A DNA stretch of 64,000 nt from Bdellovibrionota bacterium. GTDB taxonomy: Bacteria; Bdellovibrionota_C; UBA2361; CALJRW01. The stretch lies in NCBI GenBank assembly GCA_041740355.1, contig JBGSMD010000063.1, positions 53,002 through 117,001 of the forward strand. Direction: 5' to 3'. The notes beneath the pieces were generated by a model. That model saw only the letters and a list, made by a program, of their open reading frames with translations. It had not been told where the DNA came from and ran no database searches. Both the position numbers and the translations under genes were made by a program. Positions 12,508-22,163 of this stretch are shown here, piece by piece (within the stretch, counting starts at the first letter, position 1; every line of letters starts with the position of its first letter).

Positions 12508-12758
12508 CTTTTGAATCGAATCAGAGTAATAGCAACTCCTTGTACTTAAGTTGGGACCGATAAACCTCACGAAATTTATATCTTTAACCACGGTTCTATT
12601 TTTTTTGATATTAACTACAGGCCACTAAATAGTTTGAGTTTTAAAAATTAGCTTTTAAATAGCTCCCTAAATAAATTAATTGAATAGAGGTTAGTCACTT
12701 TTGTTAATGACTAACCTCTATTTTTTATAATTAGTGGTCTCTAAACCACTAAAATTAA

Positions 12759-13472
12759 TTAACGGAAAAGCTTAGTTAGTTTTTCAGCATAATTACTAGA
12801 ATCAGGAGAAACTCGACCTTCTAATAATGCTACTCGATCAACTTTCATTCCATAATAGGAATCAAGATCAGCTTGTTCTTTTCCAATTTTGCTTCCACCA
12901 ATTGCTGCACCAGCAAATAATCCTTCAGTTCTTGTGAATGCAATTACCTTAGCAGTCTCTGTATCAACACTACTATCATAATTACCTGCTACTGCACTAA
13001 GATCCGTTCCAAGTACAAAGTCACCATTCTTTAAAGACTGAACAGCATCCTTGTTCATTAGAAATAAAACAACATCAGTTGATTTAGCGCCTACTTGTAA
13101 ACCAATATTTCCTTGATTCAAGGATAGAACTGCTGGTTGACTCCACTTAGCATCAGCATTCTTACAACTTACTAGTCCAACACCATGGGCACCACCAACT
13201 ACTACTGCAGCTGTTACTACATTTGGCAAAACGGCAACACATAGTGCGTCATTTTGTATTTTCATAGGAACTTCTTTTGACTCTCCTTTGATAATTGCAG
13301 CATATACTTCTGCAGACTGATCAATCATTTTATGAAAGTGTACCAAATCTTTAATCTCTTCTTTTTTGATTTCTGCAACTTCTTCCTTGCTTACTTTTTC
13401 ATGCTGTTCAGCAAAAGTAACTATTGGAAAAATTAGGGTGATTGATAAAATCAATCCAGTTATTTTATTCAT
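12759..13472 (-). CDS. SYLF (Ysc84/DUF500) domain protein with signal peptide
   Basis: SYLF-like core VVGGAHGVGLVSCKN...EGLFAGAAIGGSKI. The signal peptide starts at the internal Met MNKITGLILSITLIFPIVTFA, so the upstream ORF extension is rejected. Confidence 0.65.
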   Translation of the reverse strand: MNKITGLILSITLIFPIVTFAEQHEKVSKEEVAEIKKEEIKDLVHFHKMIDQSAEVYAAIIKGESKEVPMKIQNDALCVAVLPNVVTAAVVVGGAHGVGLVSCKNADAKWSQPAVLSLNQGNIGLQVGAKSTDVVLFLMNKDAVQSLKNGDFVLGTDLSAVAGNYDSSVDTETAKVIAFTRTEGLFAGAAIGGSKIGKEQADLDSYYGMKVDRVALLEGRVSPDSSNYAEKLTKLFR

Positions 13473-13739
13473 GATATAGGCCTTATTTATTATTAAATTT
13501 CTTGAATCACCAATTAATTCCCAGTTGCTCTTGAACGCTCTAGCCCGCATTGTTCATCAGTGCACGTAGCGAGGCAAGGAAGTTTGGTTTCAGTTTGGAC
13601 TAAAAAATGCGCAGTGAGACCGAGGTCTCGCGAGCATATTTTCGTTCAAAATGGAATCAAAATTCATTGCCGCAGTAGTGCCATATCGATGACACACTAT
13701 AATCTTAAACAACTTCTAAATCTCTTGTAAGTCATCGAG

Positions 13740-13768
13740 ATTAGAAAGAAATTTTATTTCTTTCTAAT
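13740..13768. promoter_or_regulatory. 13-bp perfect inverted repeat (attagaaagaaat-ttt-atttctttctaat) in a divergent intergenic region; candidate operator or bidirectional hairpin
   Basis: Read directly. Lies between the SYLF gene start and the tag start. Confidence 0.3.
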
Positions 13769-14031
13769 CACTGATGAATTATGCGAGCTAGTTAAGAATG
13801 CACAACAGTCACTAAGGACATGATAATTAAAAATAATTTCCTGAGTTAACTTTTAAAAATTAGCTGAAGTTCTATTATTTCTTGACCTACTATAATTTCT
13901 ATCTTTAGTTTGCTTTATGACCTTCATCATAGGATAGGCTATTAATACTGGCTTAATCGGTCTTGCCTTTAATGAATATTGGGGGTTAATATCCTTTTTG
14001 GTTGTTTTAAACGTTATTGATCAGTAATTAA

Positions 14032-15397: not shown

Positions 15398-15428
15398 TTA
15401 ACTATTCACTACGTGAATAGTTAATGGA
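15394..15428. terminator. 16-bp perfect palindrome overlapping the tRNA-Ser 3' end (tccattaactattcac-tacg-gtgaatagttaatgga)
   Basis: Read directly. No T-run follows. Confidence 0.4.
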
Positions 15429-15672
15429 GCGCGCCGAAGCTCCGTAGGAGCGAAGGTGGGCTGATTGAATACAAAAATTTCATAGCCACGGCGTAGTCCG
15501 TCTTTGCGGAGCAAAGACGTAACGAAGACGGGCTGTTTGCGATCAAGTTATTTTACTCCAGCAGTGATTGAAACGAGCAAGTGATTTTTGTAGCCATAAC
15601 GCAGTTCTTCTTTGTGAAGCAAAGACGAAACCAAAACAATTGATACTTACACAAAATTATTTACAGGCTCCT

Positions 15673-17364
15673 TTATAGGACTGGTACATCCCCAGCACTA
15701 GCAGGAGTTTCATTATCACCAATATTGTTTGTATTACCATAACCGATACTACCAAACTCACCGCTACCCCAACACCTAACACTACCGGTATCCAGTAATA
15801 CACATGTATGAATACCTCCGGCGGCTAGTTGAACCACGGTGCCACCGACATTTACATTTCCGACACTTGCTGGAGTTTCATTGTCACCAATATTATTAGT
15901 ATTGCCATAGCCAAGCTGACCATTTAAGCCTCGGCCCCAACACCTAACATTTCCCGTATCTAGTAATGCACAGGTTTTCTTAAAACCAGTAGCTATCTGA
16001 ACTACGGTGCCTCCGACATTTACATTTCCGACATTGGCTGGAGTTTCATTGTCACCAATATTATTAGTATTTCCATAACCAAGCTCCCCATCCGAACCTT
16101 CGCCCCAGCATCTTACATTTCCCGTATCTAGTAATGCACAGGTGTGATTCCCTGAAGCGGCCAATTGAACTACATTGCCACCAATATTCACAGCCTCATA
16201 GATAAGAGGTCCAATAATGTCATAAGTGCCCCCATGGCCAAGTTGGCCATAATAACCATCCCCCCAACACTTAACATTTCCTGAATTAACCAAGGCACAT
16301 GTATGATTACTTCCTGCTACTATTTGAGTTACAGTTTCATTTTCAAAATTGTAATCTTGAATAATAACAGACTCAAAGTTAGCAGGAGCTTCATCGTCTC
16401 CAACATTAGTAGTATTTCCGTTGCCCAGTTGGCCATTTCGTCCATAACCCCAACATTTAACTTGTCCAGTATTTAAAAGTGCACAGGTATGATTTGAGCC
16501 AGCAGAGATTTGAGTAACAGTCCCGCCAACATTAACATCTCCAGCATTGGCAGGTGTTTCAAAGTATCCAACAGAAGCAGTACTACCATATCCAAGTACA
16601 CCATAGTTACCACTCCCCCAACACCTAACTTTACCTGTGTCAAGTAGGGCACAGGTATGACCCCCTCCAGTAGCGATATCAACGACATTCCCGCCAACAA
16701 TTACATCCCCAACGCTTGCTGGTGTTTCATCATCTCCAATATTATAATGTACAGGAACAGTTGCATATCCAAGTTTACCAATAAACCCCTCACCCCAACA
16801 TCTAACTGCTCCAGTATCTAGTAGAACACAAGTATGACTAAATCCTGCCGATATTTTTTGAACATCTAAAGGTATATTACATAAGTTAGAACAAGCATCG
16901 TCATTAATATTATTTCCATCATCACACTGTTCTCCAGACTGCTTGACTCCATCTCCACAAATAGGCGTTGTGCATATATTAGTACAGGAGTCCTCATTGA
17001 TCGTATTCCCATCATCACACTGTTCAGCAATATCAACATCAACTACACCATTCCCACAGGTATGATTACAAGCAACCAGTCCTGAGACATGAAGCTTCTG
17101 CATTTTTTTTGATTGATTATTATATTTATTAATTCCGGTTGAGGCGAACAACTTCTTAAAATTAGAACTTAGCTTCTTATAGGTAATAAATTTCTTTTTT
17201 TGAATCTTCCCTGGCTTCCAAGAACCATTAACGTTTTTACAAACATAATTTATACCATCCTTTTCAACGTTTACCGTCTGGGCAAAAGCCGCCCCGGAGA
17301 ATAAAAATAGGCAGACTAGCAAAGATGAGAAGATAAATTGAAATGAGTTTTTCATATGGATCAT
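15673..17364 (-). CDS. Secreted RCC1-repeat protein with N-terminal Myxococcus-type cysteine-rich repeats
   Basis: Signal peptide. Two CGNG...EQCDDGN...C...C...C units. At least 8 RCC1-like blades with HTCALLDTGxVxCWGxGxxGxLGYG. Confidence 0.8.
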   Translation of the reverse strand: MIHMKNSFQFIFSSLLVCLFLFSGAAFAQTVNVEKDGINYVCKNVNGSWKPGKIQKKKFITYKKLSSNFKKLFASTGINKYNNQSKKMQKLHVSGLVACNHTCGNGVVDVDIAEQCDDGNTINEDSCTNICTTPICGDGVKQSGEQCDDGNNINDDACSNLCNIPLDVQKISAGFSHTCVLLDTGAVRCWGEGFIGKLGYATVPVHYNIGDDETPASVGDVIVGGNVVDIATGGGHTCALLDTGKVRCWGSGNYGVLGYGSTASVGYFETPANAGDVNVGGTVTQISAGSNHTCALLNTGQVKCWGYGRNGQLGNGNTTNVGDDEAPANFESVIIQDYNFENETVTQIVAGSNHTCALVNSGNVKCWGDGYYGQLGHGGTYDIIGPLIYEAVNIGGNVVQLAASGNHTCALLDTGNVRCWGEGSDGELGYGNTNNIGDNETPANVGNVNVGGTVVQIATGFKKTCALLDTGNVRCWGRGLNGQLGYGNTNNIGDNETPASVGNVNVGGTVVQLAAGGIHTCVLLDTGSVRCWGSGEFGSIGYGNTNNIGDNETPASAGDVPVL

Positions 17365-17403
17365 TAAAAAAAGGATTAACTAACTTGTTAGGACTCGGAT
17401 CTT

Positions 17404-17515
17404 CTTGTTTAATCATTAAATAATACGGCGGCAGATAACTATCGACTCTTAAAGACTTAAACTTTAGAAATAATAATTAATGATTAGTTTGGATGAGACA
17501 ACTAAGATTTGAGAT
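17404..17515. repeat. Conserved 5' upstream element of RCC1 gene 1 (paralogous to 19437..19555)
   Basis: About 85% identical over roughly 110 bp to the region upstream of the second RCC1 gene. Confidence 0.5.
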
Positions 17516-17678
17516 TCAAGGTAAATCTCGAAACTCTAAGTGACTTTATTCACGGTTAAAAGCTGTGTCCTGACTAAATCAGACTATTTAGTTCCTAAAA
17601 ATTGCAGTTCGAAAATGGTGCCTTATAAAATAAATTTTCAAGCTACAAAATTAATATGGGACTCAAGTATCATAAGAA

Positions 17679-17706
17679 GTCTAATAGATTCTAAAAACTA
17701 TTAGAC
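17679..17706 (-). terminator. Hairpin (gtctaatag-N10-ctattagac) immediately 3' of the RCC1 gene 2 stop
   Basis: 9-bp perfect stem directly after the stop codon at 17731 on the minus strand. Confidence 0.45.
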
Positions 17707-17730
17707 TTCCAACTAATAATTTCTAGTTAC

Positions 17731-19401
17731 TTACAATACTGGCACATCGCCTGCACTAGCCGGCGTTTCGTCATCACCTATATCGTTGATATTACCATAT
17801 CCAAGATTACCCTCATCCCCATATCCCCAACATCTTACAGCACCAGTATCTAGAAGTGCACAAGTATGACTAACAATATAAGAAATTCTAGCATTTGAAG
17901 TAGTTATTTGAGTAACAGTGCCACCAACATTAATATCACCAACGCTAGCTGGAACCTCATTGTCTCCAATCGTTGTAAAATTTCCATAACCAAGTTGACC
18001 AGAACCTCCAAAACCCCAACACTTCACGGCACCAGTATCAAGTAGTGCGCAAGTGTGAGTTTTACCCGCAGATATTTGGGTTACCGTACCGCCAACATCA
18101 ACGTTATCAATACTTGCAGGTGTTTCATTGTCACCAACACTATATATATTACCGTAACCAAGTTGGCCCTCTTCGGCATATCCCCAACATTTTACTGCTC
18201 CAGTAGCTAAAAGCGCACAAGTATGATTATTGCCAGCAGATATTTGAGTTACTGTACCACCAACATTTATATCACCAACATTAGCTGGAGCCTCATTATC
18301 TCCAATAGTTTCAACATTTCCATAACCAAGTTGACCAGAACCTCCAAACCCCCAACACCTAACGGCACCATTATCAAGTAGTGCGCAAGTGTGACCACTG
18401 CCCACAGATATTTGAGTTACAGTACCGCCAACATCAACGTTACCAATACTAGCAGGTGTTTCATTGTCACCAATACTATTTGTATTACCGTAACCAAGTC
18501 GGCCATTTCCTCCATCGCCCCAACATTTTACAGCTCCAGTATCTAAAAGGGCGCAAGTATGCTTTCTACCAGCCGATATTTGAGTTACCGTACCGCCAAC
18601 ATCAACGTTACCAATACTAGCAGGTGTTTCATTGTCACCAATACTATTTGTATTACCGTAACCAAGTCGGCCATTTCCTCCATCGCCCCAACATCTTACT
18701 GCTCCAGTATCTAAGAGTGCGCATGTATGTTCTTCTCCCGCTGATACTTGAGTTATAGTACCACCTACATTCACATCTCCAACACTAGTTGGAGTTTCGT
18801 TATCTCCAATATTGATTACATTAGCATATCCAAGTTGACCAGAACCTCCATAGCCCCAACATTTAACATTACCAGTCTCCACAAGGGCACAGGTATGCGC
18901 ACCACCAGCGACTATTTCCAAGACTTTGTATAGACAAGTATTCGGACAAGTATCATCATCGTTACTATTCCCATCATCGCATTGTTCATCAGACTGGACA
19001 ATTCCATCACCACATTCTGGAAAATTACAAGAATTAGTACATAAGTCTGTGCTAACTAAATTCCCATCATCACACTGCTCACCCATGGATACGTCTAATA
19101 TTGTGTTTCCACAGGTATGACTACACGCAACTAACCCAGCTATATGCAGGTTCTTCATTTTTAGTGATTGCTTATTATATTTTTTTAAGGCAGTAGCTAC
19201 ATATAATTTCTTTAGATCTGATTGTAGTTTCTTGAAAGTTATAAATTTCTTTTTCTGGATTTTACCAGGTTTCCATGAGCCTTTAATTTGACTGCAAACA
19301 AACGTTTGTCCATCTTTAGTAACGGTAACTGTCTGTGCAAAAACTGAAGATGATAAACAAAAGAATACACAAGCGGATAATAATGAAAGCCTAATTTTCA
19401 T
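17731..19401 (-). CDS. Secreted RCC1-repeat protein with Myxococcus-type cysteine-rich repeats (tandem paralog)
   Basis: Same architecture as 15673..17364 and highly similar. Repeated HTCALLDTGAVxCWG blades. Confidence 0.8.
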   Translation of the reverse strand: MKIRLSLLSACVFFCLSSSVFAQTVTVTKDGQTFVCSQIKGSWKPGKIQKKKFITFKKLQSDLKKLYVATALKKYNKQSLKMKNLHIAGLVACSHTCGNTILDVSMGEQCDDGNLVSTDLCTNSCNFPECGDGIVQSDEQCDDGNSNDDDTCPNTCLYKVLEIVAGGAHTCALVETGNVKCWGYGGSGQLGYANVINIGDNETPTSVGDVNVGGTITQVSAGEEHTCALLDTGAVRCWGDGGNGRLGYGNTNSIGDNETPASIGNVDVGGTVTQISAGRKHTCALLDTGAVKCWGDGGNGRLGYGNTNSIGDNETPASIGNVDVGGTVTQISVGSGHTCALLDNGAVRCWGFGGSGQLGYGNVETIGDNEAPANVGDINVGGTVTQISAGNNHTCALLATGAVKCWGYAEEGQLGYGNIYSVGDNETPASIDNVDVGGTVTQISAGKTHTCALLDTGAVKCWGFGGSGQLGYGNFTTIGDNEVPASVGDINVGGTVTQITTSNARISYIVSHTCALLDTGAVRCWGYGDEGNLGYGNINDIGDDETPASAGDVPVL

Positions 19402-19436
19402 AAATTTTTCTCAAATTTGAAGTGCTAAAAAATCGC

Positions 19437-19555
19437 ACTTATTAATCGTTAAATAATACGGCAGGTAGATAACTATCGGATCACCAAGTCTTAGACTTTA
19501 GAAAAGATAATTAATGATTAGATTGGATGAAGGAAAGAAGATTAAAGCTTCTTAG
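19437..19555. repeat. Conserved 5' upstream element of RCC1 gene 2 (paralogous to 17404..17515)
   Basis: Direct comparison of the two upstream regions. Confidence 0.5.
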
Positions 19556-19686
19556 ATACCAAGAAGAGTAACAAGCACTCCTTAAACTGTCCTGAAAGTT
19601 AAGAATATGAAGTAAACAACCGAGTCTACTTCAGGCTTTAACTCCACACCTAACAATCTAATATTACTAATTAAAATGATTTATGA

Positions 19687-20103
19687 TTGAATAAGTGTAT
19701 AATAAACTATACACTTAACTCAATGAAAAGATCTCTTCCTTCTCATCTTAACACAACTAACCTCGCAATTATCCGATGTCTCTACCTAAGCGACTTCCCA
19801 GTTCCACTTCGTGAAATCGCTTATCGAACTAATCTTCAGATTAGAACTGTACAACTGATCTTAGAAAAATTTTTGAAAGAAAAAATTGTTCGAAAAAAAC
19901 GGAAAGGGCAACGGACTTCCTATACTATTAATAAAGAAGATCCCTACATTATTTTGCTTAACGAATTTATCGAGAAGCAAAATATGATGGAACTAAATCT
20001 GGCATCTCAAGAATATTCTGAAAGAGCTACTAATGCTCTACCCAATATTGTCAAAATGTATGAATTAGTAACTAGAGGTAAGAGAGATTATGAATCTAGA
20101 TGA
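19687..20103 (+). CDS. Small winged-helix DNA-binding protein (putative transcriptional regulator / antitoxin candidate)
   Basis: HTH-like segment LREIAYRTNLQIRTVQLILEKFLKEKIVRKKRKG (recognition helix plus basic wing). A probable true start is the internal Met MKRSLPS. 14-nt overlap with the next gene. Confidence 0.45.
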   Translation: MNKCIINYTLNSMKRSLPSHLNTTNLAIIRCLYLSDFPVPLREIAYRTNLQIRTVQLILEKFLKEKIVRKKRKGQRTSYTINKEDPYIILLNEFIEKQNMMELNLASQEYSERATNALPNIVKMYELVTRGKRDYESR

Positions 20104-20725
20104 TATTTTTGAATATGCTGTTAAAGAACTACATGAGCGTAAATGTAAATTTGCCGTTGCTGGCGGAATAACTTCGTCTGTCTATCGCAGCGAAGTTAGA
20201 TTAACGATGGATGCAGACATACTGATCTATTCTGGAAGCGACTCTCAAAAAATTGCTGAAGAAATTTTAAACAAAATAAATTATTCTGTTTCTTCTGCAA
20301 CGATTGCTAATCTTTCCCCCGCTCCGCGAATGAATAAGAAATCTCTACCAACCCTGATTATTGTTGGCCGACCTAAAGATAAGGGAGATATTGGACTAGA
20401 TTTCATTCTCCCTGATATGCCGTGGTTCCCAAAGGCAATAAGTCGCGCGCAAGATAATTTAATTGATTTTGGGTTTGGAAAAATCCCCTGTTTAACAATT
20501 GAAGATTTTATTATTTCTAAGTTATTTGCTTATCAACTAGCTCCCAAGAGAATCAAAGATCTAGACGATCTAACTTCTGTCTTTCAAAAAAAATCAAAGC
20601 TAGATCTTTCCTATCTTTGCGCTGAGTTAGAAAGATTAAAGATTGGAATACCAAAAGAACTCTATCAAATCGCACCGAAGGCACTACGAGTTCTTAGTAA
20701 AAGAATGAAGATCTCCTCTAAATGA
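20090..20725 (+). CDS. Minimal nucleotidyltransferase (Pol-beta superfamily; AbiEii/MNT-like toxin candidate)
   Basis: NTase signature hG[GS]...DxD is present as FAVAGGITSSVYRSEVRLTMDADILI. 211 aa. Confidence 0.5.
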   Translation: MNLDDIFEYAVKELHERKCKFAVAGGITSSVYRSEVRLTMDADILIYSGSDSQKIAEEILNKINYSVSSATIANLSPAPRMNKKSLPTLIIVGRPKDKGDIGLDFILPDMPWFPKAISRAQDNLIDFGFGKIPCLTIEDFIISKLFAYQLAPKRIKDLDDLTSVFQKKSKLDLSYLCAELERLKIGIPKELYQIAPKALRVLSKRMKISSK

Positions 20726-20726
20726 A

Positions 20727-20954
20727 CTATCTATCCTTATAGAGTTCCCTCTCCAAGCTCTCCGCCACCTTTAAAATATCAGGCGAATAAGTTTTCGCTT
20801 TAACCGCAGCTTTAATGGCAGCAATCTTAGCTTTTCTTTCAGGAGTTAATTCAGGAGTAAAGCTAACTTCAATTTCTTCAACAAGTTTAGGAATTAAAGA
20901 TCTAGCATTAGACGAAGTGATACTTTGTGGAGATTTTTTTGCGGTGTTTTTCAT
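20727..20954 (-). CDS. flgM: Anti-sigma-28 factor FlgM
   Basis: C-terminal sigma-28-binding motif KIAAIKAAVKAKTYSPDILKVAESLERELY. The true start is at the internal Met MKNTAKK (76 aa). The longer ORF extension is rejected. Confidence 0.7.
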   Translation of the reverse strand: MKNTAKKSPQSITSSNARSLIPKLVEEIEVSFTPELTPERKAKIAAIKAAVKAKTYSPDILKVAESLERELYKDR

Positions 20955-21232
20955 TTTCTTTTTATAAGGCACAAGTTGACTAAGTTTCTTCAAATAGTTA
21001 GCTATAAATTTACTGACGCAAATAAAAATATTGCCTTCAATAAATGTTATGCTTAGATTTTGCTGACCTGTAACCCTATCTGAACACAAGAATAACACTT
21101 GGGGCCCAAAGCCCCAAGCTATAACCATTTGAAAAAGTGAAAAAAACCTGTAATTTACTATCGGTGCAATAATTAGCTAGCTTGAGTACTTTTTTAGATA
21201 TTTTATATTTCTTTTAACCACCTAATATTACA

Positions 21233-21697
21233 ATGAAAATAAAATTAATCTGTGGTTTTAAGTTAAAACAGGAAGAACTGTTTCAATTAGAACAATCATA
21301 TCTAAAACGTCTTAAAAACGAGTATCGGCTAGAGATTGTCGAGGTCCCTTACACAAAGAATCAGTCTGCTGATGAGATTAAGAGCCGACATCCAGCGGAA
21401 CTACTCGCCAAATCCTCACCATCAGCCTTTAAAGTGCTTTTAGCGGAAGATGGCAAATCAATGACTACCAATCAACTAGCAAGTATAGTTGATGAGAAGA
21501 AGCTAACTGGCCTAAATGAGTTACATTTTTTTATTGGTGGGCCATACGGAATTGCCAAAGATGCTTATCCTTTGTTTAATTTAAAATTAAACATTTCGTT
21601 AATGACATTCACCGCAGAATTTTGTAGGTTGATCATCATTGAACAAATTTATCGCTTGCAATGTATCAGTTTAGGCGTTCCGTATCATAAAGAGTAA
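21233..21697 (+). CDS. rlmH: 23S rRNA (pseudouridine1915-N3)-methyltransferase RlmH
   Basis: SPOUT motifs IGGPYG and C-terminal PYHKE, comparable to NHPYHRE in E. coli RlmH. Confidence 0.85.
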   Translation: MKIKLICGFKLKQEELFQLEQSYLKRLKNEYRLEIVEVPYTKNQSADEIKSRHPAELLAKSSPSAFKVLLAEDGKSMTTNQLASIVDEKKLTGLNELHFFIGGPYGIAKDAYPLFNLKLNISLMTFTAEFCRLIIIEQIYRLQCISLGVPYHKE

Positions 21698-21701
21698 ACA
21701 T

Positions 21702-22163
21702 ATGTCAGCAAAAACAAAGCCTACAAACTTAGTACTAAAGTCGATTACCGGGGATAAAGATCCTGTTCGACTTATTGAAGATTTTATTCAAGACCTGGGC
21801 TTTGATGCCGAAGAATGTTTAAACATTCGTAGCGCTGAGACTTGTCGTTGGGTTGTTCCTCTTAATGATGAAGTTCAATTAGAGCTACTCCTAGAAAACA
21901 TTAAACAAGTCTTTGGAACTATTCTTTACATGGGTGTTAACCTAACAACTGTTCCTTTAAAAGATACTCAAAATTTTTTAATTCATGCTCTGGAAACTGC
22001 TGACTCCTTAATTGGAGTTAAGGTCAGCGTTGTTGGTCATTTCTTGGTATTAAGTAGCACTGCTAATCTACATGATAAAAACATCTCCGATATTAATTAT
22101 CAAATGACAGAATTGTTACAACAAAGCGCTTGGTATCAAGGTGCCCTAACAAATAACGATTAG
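21702..22163 (+). CDS. Hypothetical protein (153 aa; YbjN-like size)
   Basis: ORF only. Confidence 0.4.
   Translation: MSAKTKPTNLVLKSITGDKDPVRLIEDFIQDLGFDAEECLNIRSAETCRWVVPLNDEVQLELLLENIKQVFGTILYMGVNLTTVPLKDTQNFLIHALETADSLIGVKVSVVGHFLVLSSTANLHDKNISDINYQMTELLQQSAWYQGALTNND

Follow-up and report, generated by a model that had tools for sequence, protein, structure and literature searches.

A compact DUF1814 nucleotidyltransferase and its winged-helix partner form a candidate autoregulated toxin–antitoxin module in a Bdellovibrionota genome

Two overlapping genes at positions 19687–20725 of a 64,000-nt stretch of Bdellovibrionota DNA (assembly GCA_041740355.1, contig JBGSMD010000063.1, positions 53,002–117,001 of the forward strand; the whole stretch is hereafter the window) pose a question: do a small winged-helix protein and the nucleotidyltransferase (NTase) encoded behind it constitute a toxin–antitoxin pair and, if they do, of which kind? 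The original prediction, drawn from the sequence, had offered two candidates, an AbiE-like system and one of the minimal nucleotidyltransferase (MNT) type. From the analyses described below we judge it probable that the two genes form a toxin–antitoxin module of the DUF1814 (AbiEii/MenT) class that is self-contained and autoregulated, with an antitoxin of an undescribed type.

The two open reading frames (ORFs) overlap by 14 nt, as had been noted. The NTase gene, encoding the putative toxin, runs from an ATG at 20090 to 20725 (plus strand, 211 aa), and the partner ORF in its maximal form occupies 19687–20103 (plus strand, 138 aa) from a TTG. The 138 aa first assigned to the upstream protein are those of this maximal ORF and have to be revised: the protein most likely begins at ATG 19723 and comprises 126 aa, making 19723–20103 (plus strand) the putative antitoxin/autorepressor gene. 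ATG 19723 is the start in public gene calls for the identical protein and for its 126-aa orthologue, and the N-termini of 18 partner homologues line up at its Met in our partner alignment (A3). Instead of a start codon, TTG 19687 almost certainly represents the opening triplet of a −35 hexamer, TTGAAT, which recurs in homologous loci; the 138-aa form is probably wrong. Both genes are real, functional and under purifying selection rather than chance ORFs, since the ratio of nonsynonymous to synonymous substitution rates (dN/dS) relative to the orthologous pair in the metagenome-assembled genome (MAG) GCA_031385045.1 comes to 0.19 (partner) and 0.09 (NTase), with dS at ~0.7. An Rfam scan of 19300–21300 returned no credible RNA family.

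Assignment of the second protein to the AbiEii/DUF1814 NTases, as originally proposed, is borne out by a Pfam match above cut-off and by catalytic residues that are intact on alignment. Pfam AbiEii (PF08843) matched the NTase with 33.3 bits (gathering cut-off 22.5; E = 6.4e-8) over profile positions 11–175 of 238; the PADLOC AbiEii models gave several weak matches for it, and 27 of 29 family members match one of them. A database search yielded 240 homologues, nearly all of 200–230 aa, whose precomputed domain matches are to AbiEii, DUF6036 or DUF2204, with PF08843 in most. In an exhaustive profile search of 1.84 billion representative sequences, with clustering at 50% identity, an E of at most 1e-30 was reached by 111 clusters, one of at most 1e-10 by 252 and one of at most 1e-3 by 1900; the lengths of the relatives found in it gave no hint of fusion proteins. 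Judging from these cluster counts and from the lengths, the subfamily appears to be a discrete, fairly small clade inside a large superfamily.

The active site is complete. In an alignment of 120 family sequences G25, G26, R33, R37, T39, G93, D104, E138, D139, K144 and D160 are invariant, and D41, D43, R154 and D157 occur in 90% or more. The peptide FAVAGGITSSVYRSEVRLTMDADILI, singled out beforehand for its GG…DAD pattern, is indeed encoded, with G25-G26 at nt 20162–20167 and D41-A-D43 at nt 20210–20218. All four DUF1814 motifs as defined by Dy et al. (2014) are found. Motifs I/II, hG[GS]-x(~15)-DhD plus an Arg that precedes the first Asp by four residues, correspond to A24-G25-G26, 14 residues and then D41-A-D43 (G25-G26...R37-L-T39-M-D41-A-D43, 20162–20218, plus strand; RFTRDVD in MenT1). 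Motif III, a Lys flanked by hydrophobic residues in KLxAa..R, and motif IV, +DxxD, correspond to K144-L-F-A-Y...R154 and K156-D157-L-D159-D160 (together 20519–20569, plus strand). D104 (20399–20401, plus strand), which aligns with the VDLL motif of MenT1, would be the third catalytic acidic residue.

Comparisons with solved structures lead to one relative by both sequence and fold. A profile search of the PDB ranked MenT1 (Rv0078A, 8an4) first, with an end-to-end alignment (E = 5e-8, residues 3–183 against 3–171), and Foldseek with the AlphaFold2 (AF2) model of the NTase (predicted local distance difference test score, pLDDT, 90.8; predicted template modelling score, pTM, 0.89) placed the MenT1 entries 8an5, 8an4 and 8rr5 on top (TM 0.62–0.73; 0.63–0.73 for 8an5 and 8an4), with MenT3/TglT, JHP933, ANT(2'')-Ia and LnuA lower down. 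Once the numbering of the MenT1 PDB chain, which is off by one relative to the published numbering, is corrected, MenT1 T39, D41, K137 and D152 align with T39, D41, K144 and D160 of the window NTase; MenT1 is auto-phosphorylated on T39, and its D41, K137 and D152 act in catalysis or in binding nucleoside triphosphates (PMC11375011). The gene thus encodes a genuine DUF1814/AbiEii-superfamily enzyme of MenT1 type with a complete active site, and the early description of it as a minimal or divergent variant is apt, the nearest solved relative being the 196-residue MenT1. The MenT1 segment holding L120 and L123, two residues of the MenA1-binding pocket, is matched in the alignment by a subfamily signature, N123-x-x-D126-F-G-F-G130. 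As a pointer only, a different antitoxin interface could well lie in this segment; because the signature occupies the place of those pocket residues, the toxin–antitoxin interface probably differs from that of MenT1–MenA1.

The upstream protein is a winged helix-turn-helix (wHTH) protein of ArsR/SmtB-like fold, in agreement with the winged-helix segment that had been suspected in it. It is annotated publicly as a hypothetical protein without a Pfam domain. A word-index search with the partner alone returned only itself and its orthologue, and a 19-sequence profile found nine proteins; the family was assembled from DNA loci because protein searches returned so few relatives. None of the AbiEi, HEPN, MenA or SanaA models of Pfam, NCBIfam and PADLOC matched the 126-aa protein, Pfam AbiEi matched neither it nor 19 homologues, and a PADLOC AbiEi model matched one of 19 partners (E = 0.0085). 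Its top matches were to wHTH families and below threshold (DUF7342, HTH_Crp_2, ArsR and the wHTH part of Csa3). A PDB search with the 19-sequence profile found CzrA, SmtB and CadC (E = 6e-5 to 4e-3, residues 3–85), and Foldseek with the AF2 model (pLDDT 85) found CzrA and SmtB, with a root-mean-square deviation of ~2 Å over 75–81 columns, in the wHTH only.

In this model, helices 11–22 and 29–36, a recognition helix at 40–52 that includes R41, T42 and Q44, and a β-hairpin wing at 56–69 make up the wHTH (residues ~11–69; 19753–19929, plus strand), which is followed by a single long C-terminal helix of 52 residues (74–125; 19942–20097, plus strand). The latter shows a weakly conserved R..Y...A...L.F pattern in alignment A3, and no PDB match of the partner extended beyond the wHTH into it. 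We propose that this helix could serve as the dimerisation and toxin-binding element, on the basis of a model that is a monomer built from nine sequences. Across alignment A3 L20 is invariant and R30 nearly so, and no metal- or ligand-sensing residues (a Cys/His/Asp set at α3N or α5) are conserved.

Two further comparisons concern the identity of the partner. The N-terminal part of PADLOC PDC-M05A (positions ~17–90) matches its wHTH in 17 of 19 loci, with a best E of 5e-10. PDC-M05 is an NTase+HEPN module enriched in Archaea (PMC12988326), and since it belongs to that candidate system we take the match as wHTH resemblance only; in PDC-M05A a related wHTH appears fused to an NTase. SanaA/DUF6088 was considered as an identity for the partner and rejected: aligned by hhalign with SanaA (NC_008573, 21935–22342), the partner profile scored a probability of 0.2%, and DUF6088 does not occur in the list of 25 Pfam families (of 49 that matched) for the partner set. 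In the open-access literature on DUF6088- or ArsR-type antitoxins of DUF1814 toxins and on DUF6036 we found no description of the partner family or of the module.

Is the pair a unit? To the 21 genome loci with an NTase relative, located with a nine-sequence alignment, we added 20 metagenome loci and several more by exact-protein look-up, ~45 in total. In nearly all of those with enough upstream sequence, a partner homologue of 119–135 aa lies directly upstream of the NTase, the junction ranging from −29 (overlap) to +39 nt (gap), and the pair forms a conserved bicistronic module laid out like a toxin–antitoxin operon. The hosts include Oligoflexia/Bdellovibrionales, Nitrospira/Nitrospirales, Bradymonadales, Spartobacteria and Kiritimatiellae, as well as unclassified 'Deltaproteobacteria'/Pseudomonadota MAGs; the flanking genes differ and are unrelated from locus to locus, and one MAG (SJ607) holds two copies of the module (L019 and L024). 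Among 28 loci, the pairwise identities of partners and NTases are correlated (r = 0.87; Mantel 0/5000), with means of 29% for the partner and 47% for the NTase. The partner, therefore, diverges faster, the usual antitoxin-versus-toxin pattern, and the pair is a conserved unit, inherited and evolving together.

Some of these loci have peculiarities of their own. The NTase gene is disrupted at one and the same point, immediately ahead of the invariant VGR, in L005 (3640–4642), where an in-frame TGA occurs at about codon 90 and the partner ORF continues in frame into the NTase, and in L024 (4001–4668), where a 1-nt frameshift leaves the partner intact and the same MAG has an intact second copy in L019. 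These may be toxin-inactivating mutations or, because both loci come from MAGs, assembly errors; they are mildly consistent with a costly toxin. In L026 (4633–10615) the module adjoins a DUF1814 pair of canonical size that resembles SanaTA (DUF6088, 206 aa; AbiEii, 348 aa), and a DUF2779 gene and an MmeI-family restriction–modification gene are also present, in what looks like a defence-island context.

Upstream of the partner gene nearly every locus shares one layout: a TTGAnn −35 hexamer, exactly 17 nt, a TACAAT or TACACT −10 hexamer, 5–9 nt and the start codon. In the window these are TTGAAT (19687–19692, plus strand), 17 nt, TACACT (19710–19715, plus strand), 7 nt and ATG 19723. The exact 17-nt spacing between TTGAnn and the −10 box holds in 17 of the 19 genome loci; a promoter score of at least 8 is likewise reached in 17 of 19 and by 6.5% of the 138 other gene starts of these loci, and the arrangement is repeated in the metagenome loci and in L005. 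A generic promoter scan did not report the window promoter, since TTGAAT/TACACT fits only 8 of 12 positions, and it came to light through cross-locus comparison only.

Lying across this promoter is an operator-like palindrome, TAAGTGTATA-N6-TATACACTTA (19692–19717), with 10-nt arms that are 100% complementary and a single occurrence in the window. Its 20-bp core, GTGTATAATAAACTATACAC (TGT-N12-ACA; 19695–19714), covers spacer and −10 box alike, and the −10 hexamer coincides with its right half-site. In most of 19 loci a comparable palindrome stops 1–8 nt short of the start codon, and a palindrome score of at least 9 was obtained for 14 of the 19 and for 1.7% of random windows. Half-sites of the TGT-N12-ACA element across loci read TTGTACAA, TTGTATAA, TTGTCTAA or TTGTTCTA, and their fifth base co-varies with residue 44 in the partner's recognition helix, a change from A to C tracking one from Gln to Glu: Glu occurs in six of six loci with a TGTCTAA left half-site and in none of 24 others, in counts uncorrected for phylogeny, and Gln in 20 of 22 loci with TGTA[C/T]AA-type half-sites. 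Such covariation is to be expected of a protein–operator pair. Moreover, TTGAATAAGTGTATAA, the −35 hexamer plus left half-site, is unchanged in an 89%-identity relative whose synonymous sites differ by ~45%. In Verrucomicrobia-type loci (L011, 2638–2676; L028, upstream of 4649) the right TGTCTA half-site is displaced by ~8 bp, giving TGTCTATAT-N10-ATATAGACA abutting the start codon instead of TGT-N12-ACA, which may be an alternative operator geometry.

The two genes also differ in their start signals. A Shine–Dalgarno core of at least 4 nt precedes 14 of 28 NTase genes and none of 28 partner genes; in the window the NTase start is preceded at 11 nt by a Shine–Dalgarno-like AGAGGT (20073–20078, plus strand), which falls within the 3'-terminal part of the partner gene. 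On this evidence and on the 7-nt distance from the −10 box to ATG 19723, the bicistronic mRNA would be leaderless or near-leaderless, and the architecture of promoter, operator and leaderless start, as read from the aligned loci, appears unusually clear.

How might such a module work? By analogy with published work on MenT1, MenT3, MenT4 and AbiEii, we infer that the NTase would extend tRNA 3' ends with nucleoside monophosphates, a modification that would block aminoacylation and stop translation. The partner, as a dimer, would occupy the 20-bp TGT-N12-ACA palindrome over the spacer and −10 box of its own promoter and, by covering the −10 box, repress the leaderless bicistronic transcript. It would also bind and neutralise the NTase, most plausibly through its long C-terminal helix. 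MenA1 docks an amphipathic helix onto MenT1, and antitoxins induce auto-phosphorylation of a conserved Thr or Ser in AbiEii (T65) and MenT3 (S78) and likewise of T39 in MenT1; neutralisation here could proceed by MenA1-like occlusion of the active site, by induced auto-phosphorylation of Thr39, or by both. We give slightly less than even credence to the possibility that with the 126-aa protein, an ArsR-type winged helix joined to one long helix, DUF1814 toxins gain a new antitoxin family, in effect a fourth solution of MenA/AbiEi type, which represses a leaderless promoter as well as neutralising a MenT1-like tRNA NTase; were it so, Thr39 auto-phosphorylation may be triggered without a kinase-like domain. 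The biological role of the module would lie in phage defence or in addiction or stress.

Several points weigh against a toxin–antitoxin module with a new antitoxin. The Pfam match of the NTase is modest (33 bits) and its identity to MenT1 17–18%. The partner resembles no validated antitoxin and could be a mere repressor, and its long helix may in reality fold back. The leaderless start is suggested by spacing, and the Gln/Glu covariation, uncorrected for phylogeny, perhaps represents only ~3 lineages. No link to mobile elements emerged: the base composition of the pair is ordinary (GC 35.4% vs 36.7%), no relatives were found on IMG/VR viral contigs, PLSDB plasmids or INPHARED phages, and in the related genome GCA_031385045.1 the pair sits at the same place beside flgM, synteny resuming at 19660, ~27 nt upstream of the −35 box. 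Because the pair occupies the same site in that one related genome, it is from patchy distribution that mobility is inferred. The objection foreseen in the original prediction, that the pair might belong to a syntenic core with no toxicity, gains little from this: the site is shared with one related genome, but in all other lineages the contexts are unrelated.

The same stable placement in two related genomes, with no mobile-element link, would suit a non-toxic NTase, one that modifies small molecules or antibiotics or repairs RNA, under the control of a wHTH protein that is simply a transcription factor, possibly a ligand-sensing one. ANT(2'')-Ia and LnuA are indeed among the structural matches (TM 0.46–0.53), and the partner's fold class includes the ligand-sensing ArsR and MarR repressors. 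Nevertheless, the sequence models give AbiEii/DUF1814 and not resistance NTase families, the phospho-acceptor Thr and the motifs specific to DUF1814 (III and IV) vary little or not at all, and the partners conserve no Cys/His/Asp ligand set; the overlapping bicistron, the faster-evolving partner, the multiple copies and the patchy spread across phyla fit a toxin–antitoxin system, and we regard a non-toxic enzyme, the chief alternative, as improbable. Decay of the locus to a remnant without current function would be in keeping with the disrupted NTase genes of L005 and L024, but in the window both genes are intact and constrained to the dN/dS values given above, all catalytic residues are present and promoter and operator are conserved, which leaves this reading with very little probability.

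As to which kind of toxin–antitoxin system this is, neither class named at the outset fits well. A wHTH protein does precede an NTase, and the N-terminus of PDC-M05A does resemble the partner wHTH in 17 of 19 members. The MNT type is nonetheless contradicted by the absence of any HEPN or NTP_transf_2 match to either protein in Pfam, NCBIfam and PADLOC, and by a 211-aa NTase that matches AbiEii models rather than minimal-NTase ones, whereas MNT–HEPN modules pair a minimal NTase of ~100–140 aa with a HEPN protein bearing an Rx4-6H motif; AbiE in the strict sense is contradicted by partners that are not significant for Pfam AbiEi (the PADLOC model reaching a single one, as noted) and by a 126-aa protein without the AbiEi C-terminal domain. 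We accordingly consider an MNT–HEPN or canonical AbiEi/AbiEii module hardly credible. More plausible, if still unlikely, and overlapping with the toxin–antitoxin interpretation itself, is that the locus is primarily an AbiE-type abortive-infection system in which phage infection would deplete or inactivate a labile repressor–antitoxin and so free the NTase to stop translation. The DUF1814 systems AbiE and SanaTA have been reported to act against phages (PMC3985639; bioRxiv 10.64898/2026.01.19.700257), and L026 offers a defence-island-like context with its AbiEii pair and MmeI restriction–modification gene. Against this, housekeeping genes flank most loci, PADLOC calls no defence system for the module, the window contains no phage-related context, and S. 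agalactiae AbiE gave no protection against 32 coliphages (bioRxiv 10.64898/2026.01.19.700257).

The surroundings of the pair in the window include a variable segment on its left. Two tandem paralogous genes of ~560 aa each (15673–17364 and 17731–19401, both on the minus strand) encode proteins that begin with a signal-like segment and contain Cys-rich DUF4215 repeats and an RCC1-like propeller of seven blades. Where the window has these two genes and their flanks (15399–19660), GCA_031385045.1 has one DUF2238 gene, and the spot left of the toxin–antitoxin promoter is variable for this reason; further left, ~1.5 kb (12520–14024) is missing from the otherwise collinear region of that genome (between L002 positions 5075 and 5079). 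Terminator-like hairpins with T-runs at 19608–19633 and 19548–19566 (minus strand), just upstream of the toxin–antitoxin promoter and within the non-syntenic segment, could stop leftward antisense flgM transcripts before the RCC1-repeat gene. The FlgM-like ORF had been placed correctly as convergent and directly downstream (20727–21128, minus strand), its stop being 1 nt from that of the NTase gene; it is 133 aa at most, with an orthologue called at 75 aa, and its Pfam FlgM score of 23.4 bits is slightly under the cut-off of 25. Because no terminator separates it from the NTase gene, flgM transcription may read antisense into the toxin–antitoxin operon. A 153-aa ORF at 21702–22163 (plus strand), directly 3' of a gene for an RlmH-like SPOUT methyltransferase, is conserved in the relative and has no Pfam match.

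DUF1814 toxins such as AbiEii and MenT, which stop translation by lengthening tRNA 3' ends, are actively studied, and their switch-off is now attributed to antitoxin-induced auto-phosphorylation. Their known antitoxins comprise COG5340, COG4861, DUF6088 and the tiny MenA1, and a further, unrelated one acting on the most minimal form of the toxin would test the generality of the phosphorylation mechanism and show how little protein suffices to trigger it. If the covariation is as it appears, the conserved operator and the switch of Gln/Glu with A/C would provide a compact, portable model of repressor–operator co-evolution; the regular promoter, operator and leaderless design, kept across phyla with readable helix–base covariation, makes direct experiments easier. 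The subfamily is modest in size (~110–250 clusters at 50% identity among the 1.84 billion representatives), and its ecological weight is limited because it is known from uncultured lineages only. The toxin class already carries this annotation; the novelty lies in the partner family and its regulation and is incremental.

Of the systems already characterised, MenAT1 of M. tuberculosis (MenT1 Rv0078A, MenA1 Rv0078B; 8AN4, 8AN5, 8RR5) is like the window pair in its compact toxin of ~200 aa, in an antitoxin gene placed upstream, in having T39, D41, K137 and D152 whose equivalents are invariant or nearly so in the window family, and probably in an antitoxin helix that engages the toxin; it is unlike it in toxin sequence (17–18% identity) and, by its published description, in an antitoxin of 68 aa with no DNA-binding domain (PMC10435456), where the window has 126 aa, an ArsR-type wHTH and an operator. 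AbiE of L. lactis and S. agalactiae, MenAT4 and MenAT3, the last with a COG4861 antitoxin, share with the window pair a bicistronic operon in which a wHTH protein is encoded ahead of a DUF1814 NTase, inverted repeats in the promoter and NTase motifs I–IV. Yet AbiEi and MenA4 are COG5340 proteins of ~200–300 aa in total with a large C-terminal domain, which the window partner lacks along with any AbiEi match, and AbiEii has ~290 aa to the 211 of the window NTase. The AbiE operator, moreover, is made up of two repeats of 23 bp each, which lie upstream of a gene that has a leader and a ribosome-binding site (Dy et al., 2014), in contrast to the single 20-bp palindrome over the −10 box of a putatively leaderless gene seen here.

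SanaTA of Shewanella sp. ANA-3 (DUF6088, 136 aa; DUF1814, 313 aa) has in common with the window locus an antitoxin of ~130 aa encoded upstream of the NTase, but the window toxin is 100 residues shorter and SanaT aligns with its profile in motifs I/II only. With MNT–HEPN systems and PADLOC PDC-M05 the pair shares the two-gene cassette of an NTase and a small partner and, through the N-terminus of PDC-M05A, the resemblance in the wHTH; it differs in having no HEPN protein and an NTase of another family, and the roles of toxin and antitoxin are reversed in MNT–HEPN. The ArsR/SmtB repressors CzrA, SmtB and CadC match the partner in fold and profile over residues ~3–85, and binding as a dimer to a palindrome that overlaps the promoter would be the expected mode, whereas the partner has no conserved metal ligands, an extra helix of ~50 residues and an obligate linkage to an NTase gene. 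Altogether, the module would work like the toxin–antitoxin systems compared here but has a distinct architecture of its putative antitoxin and a distinct regulatory design.

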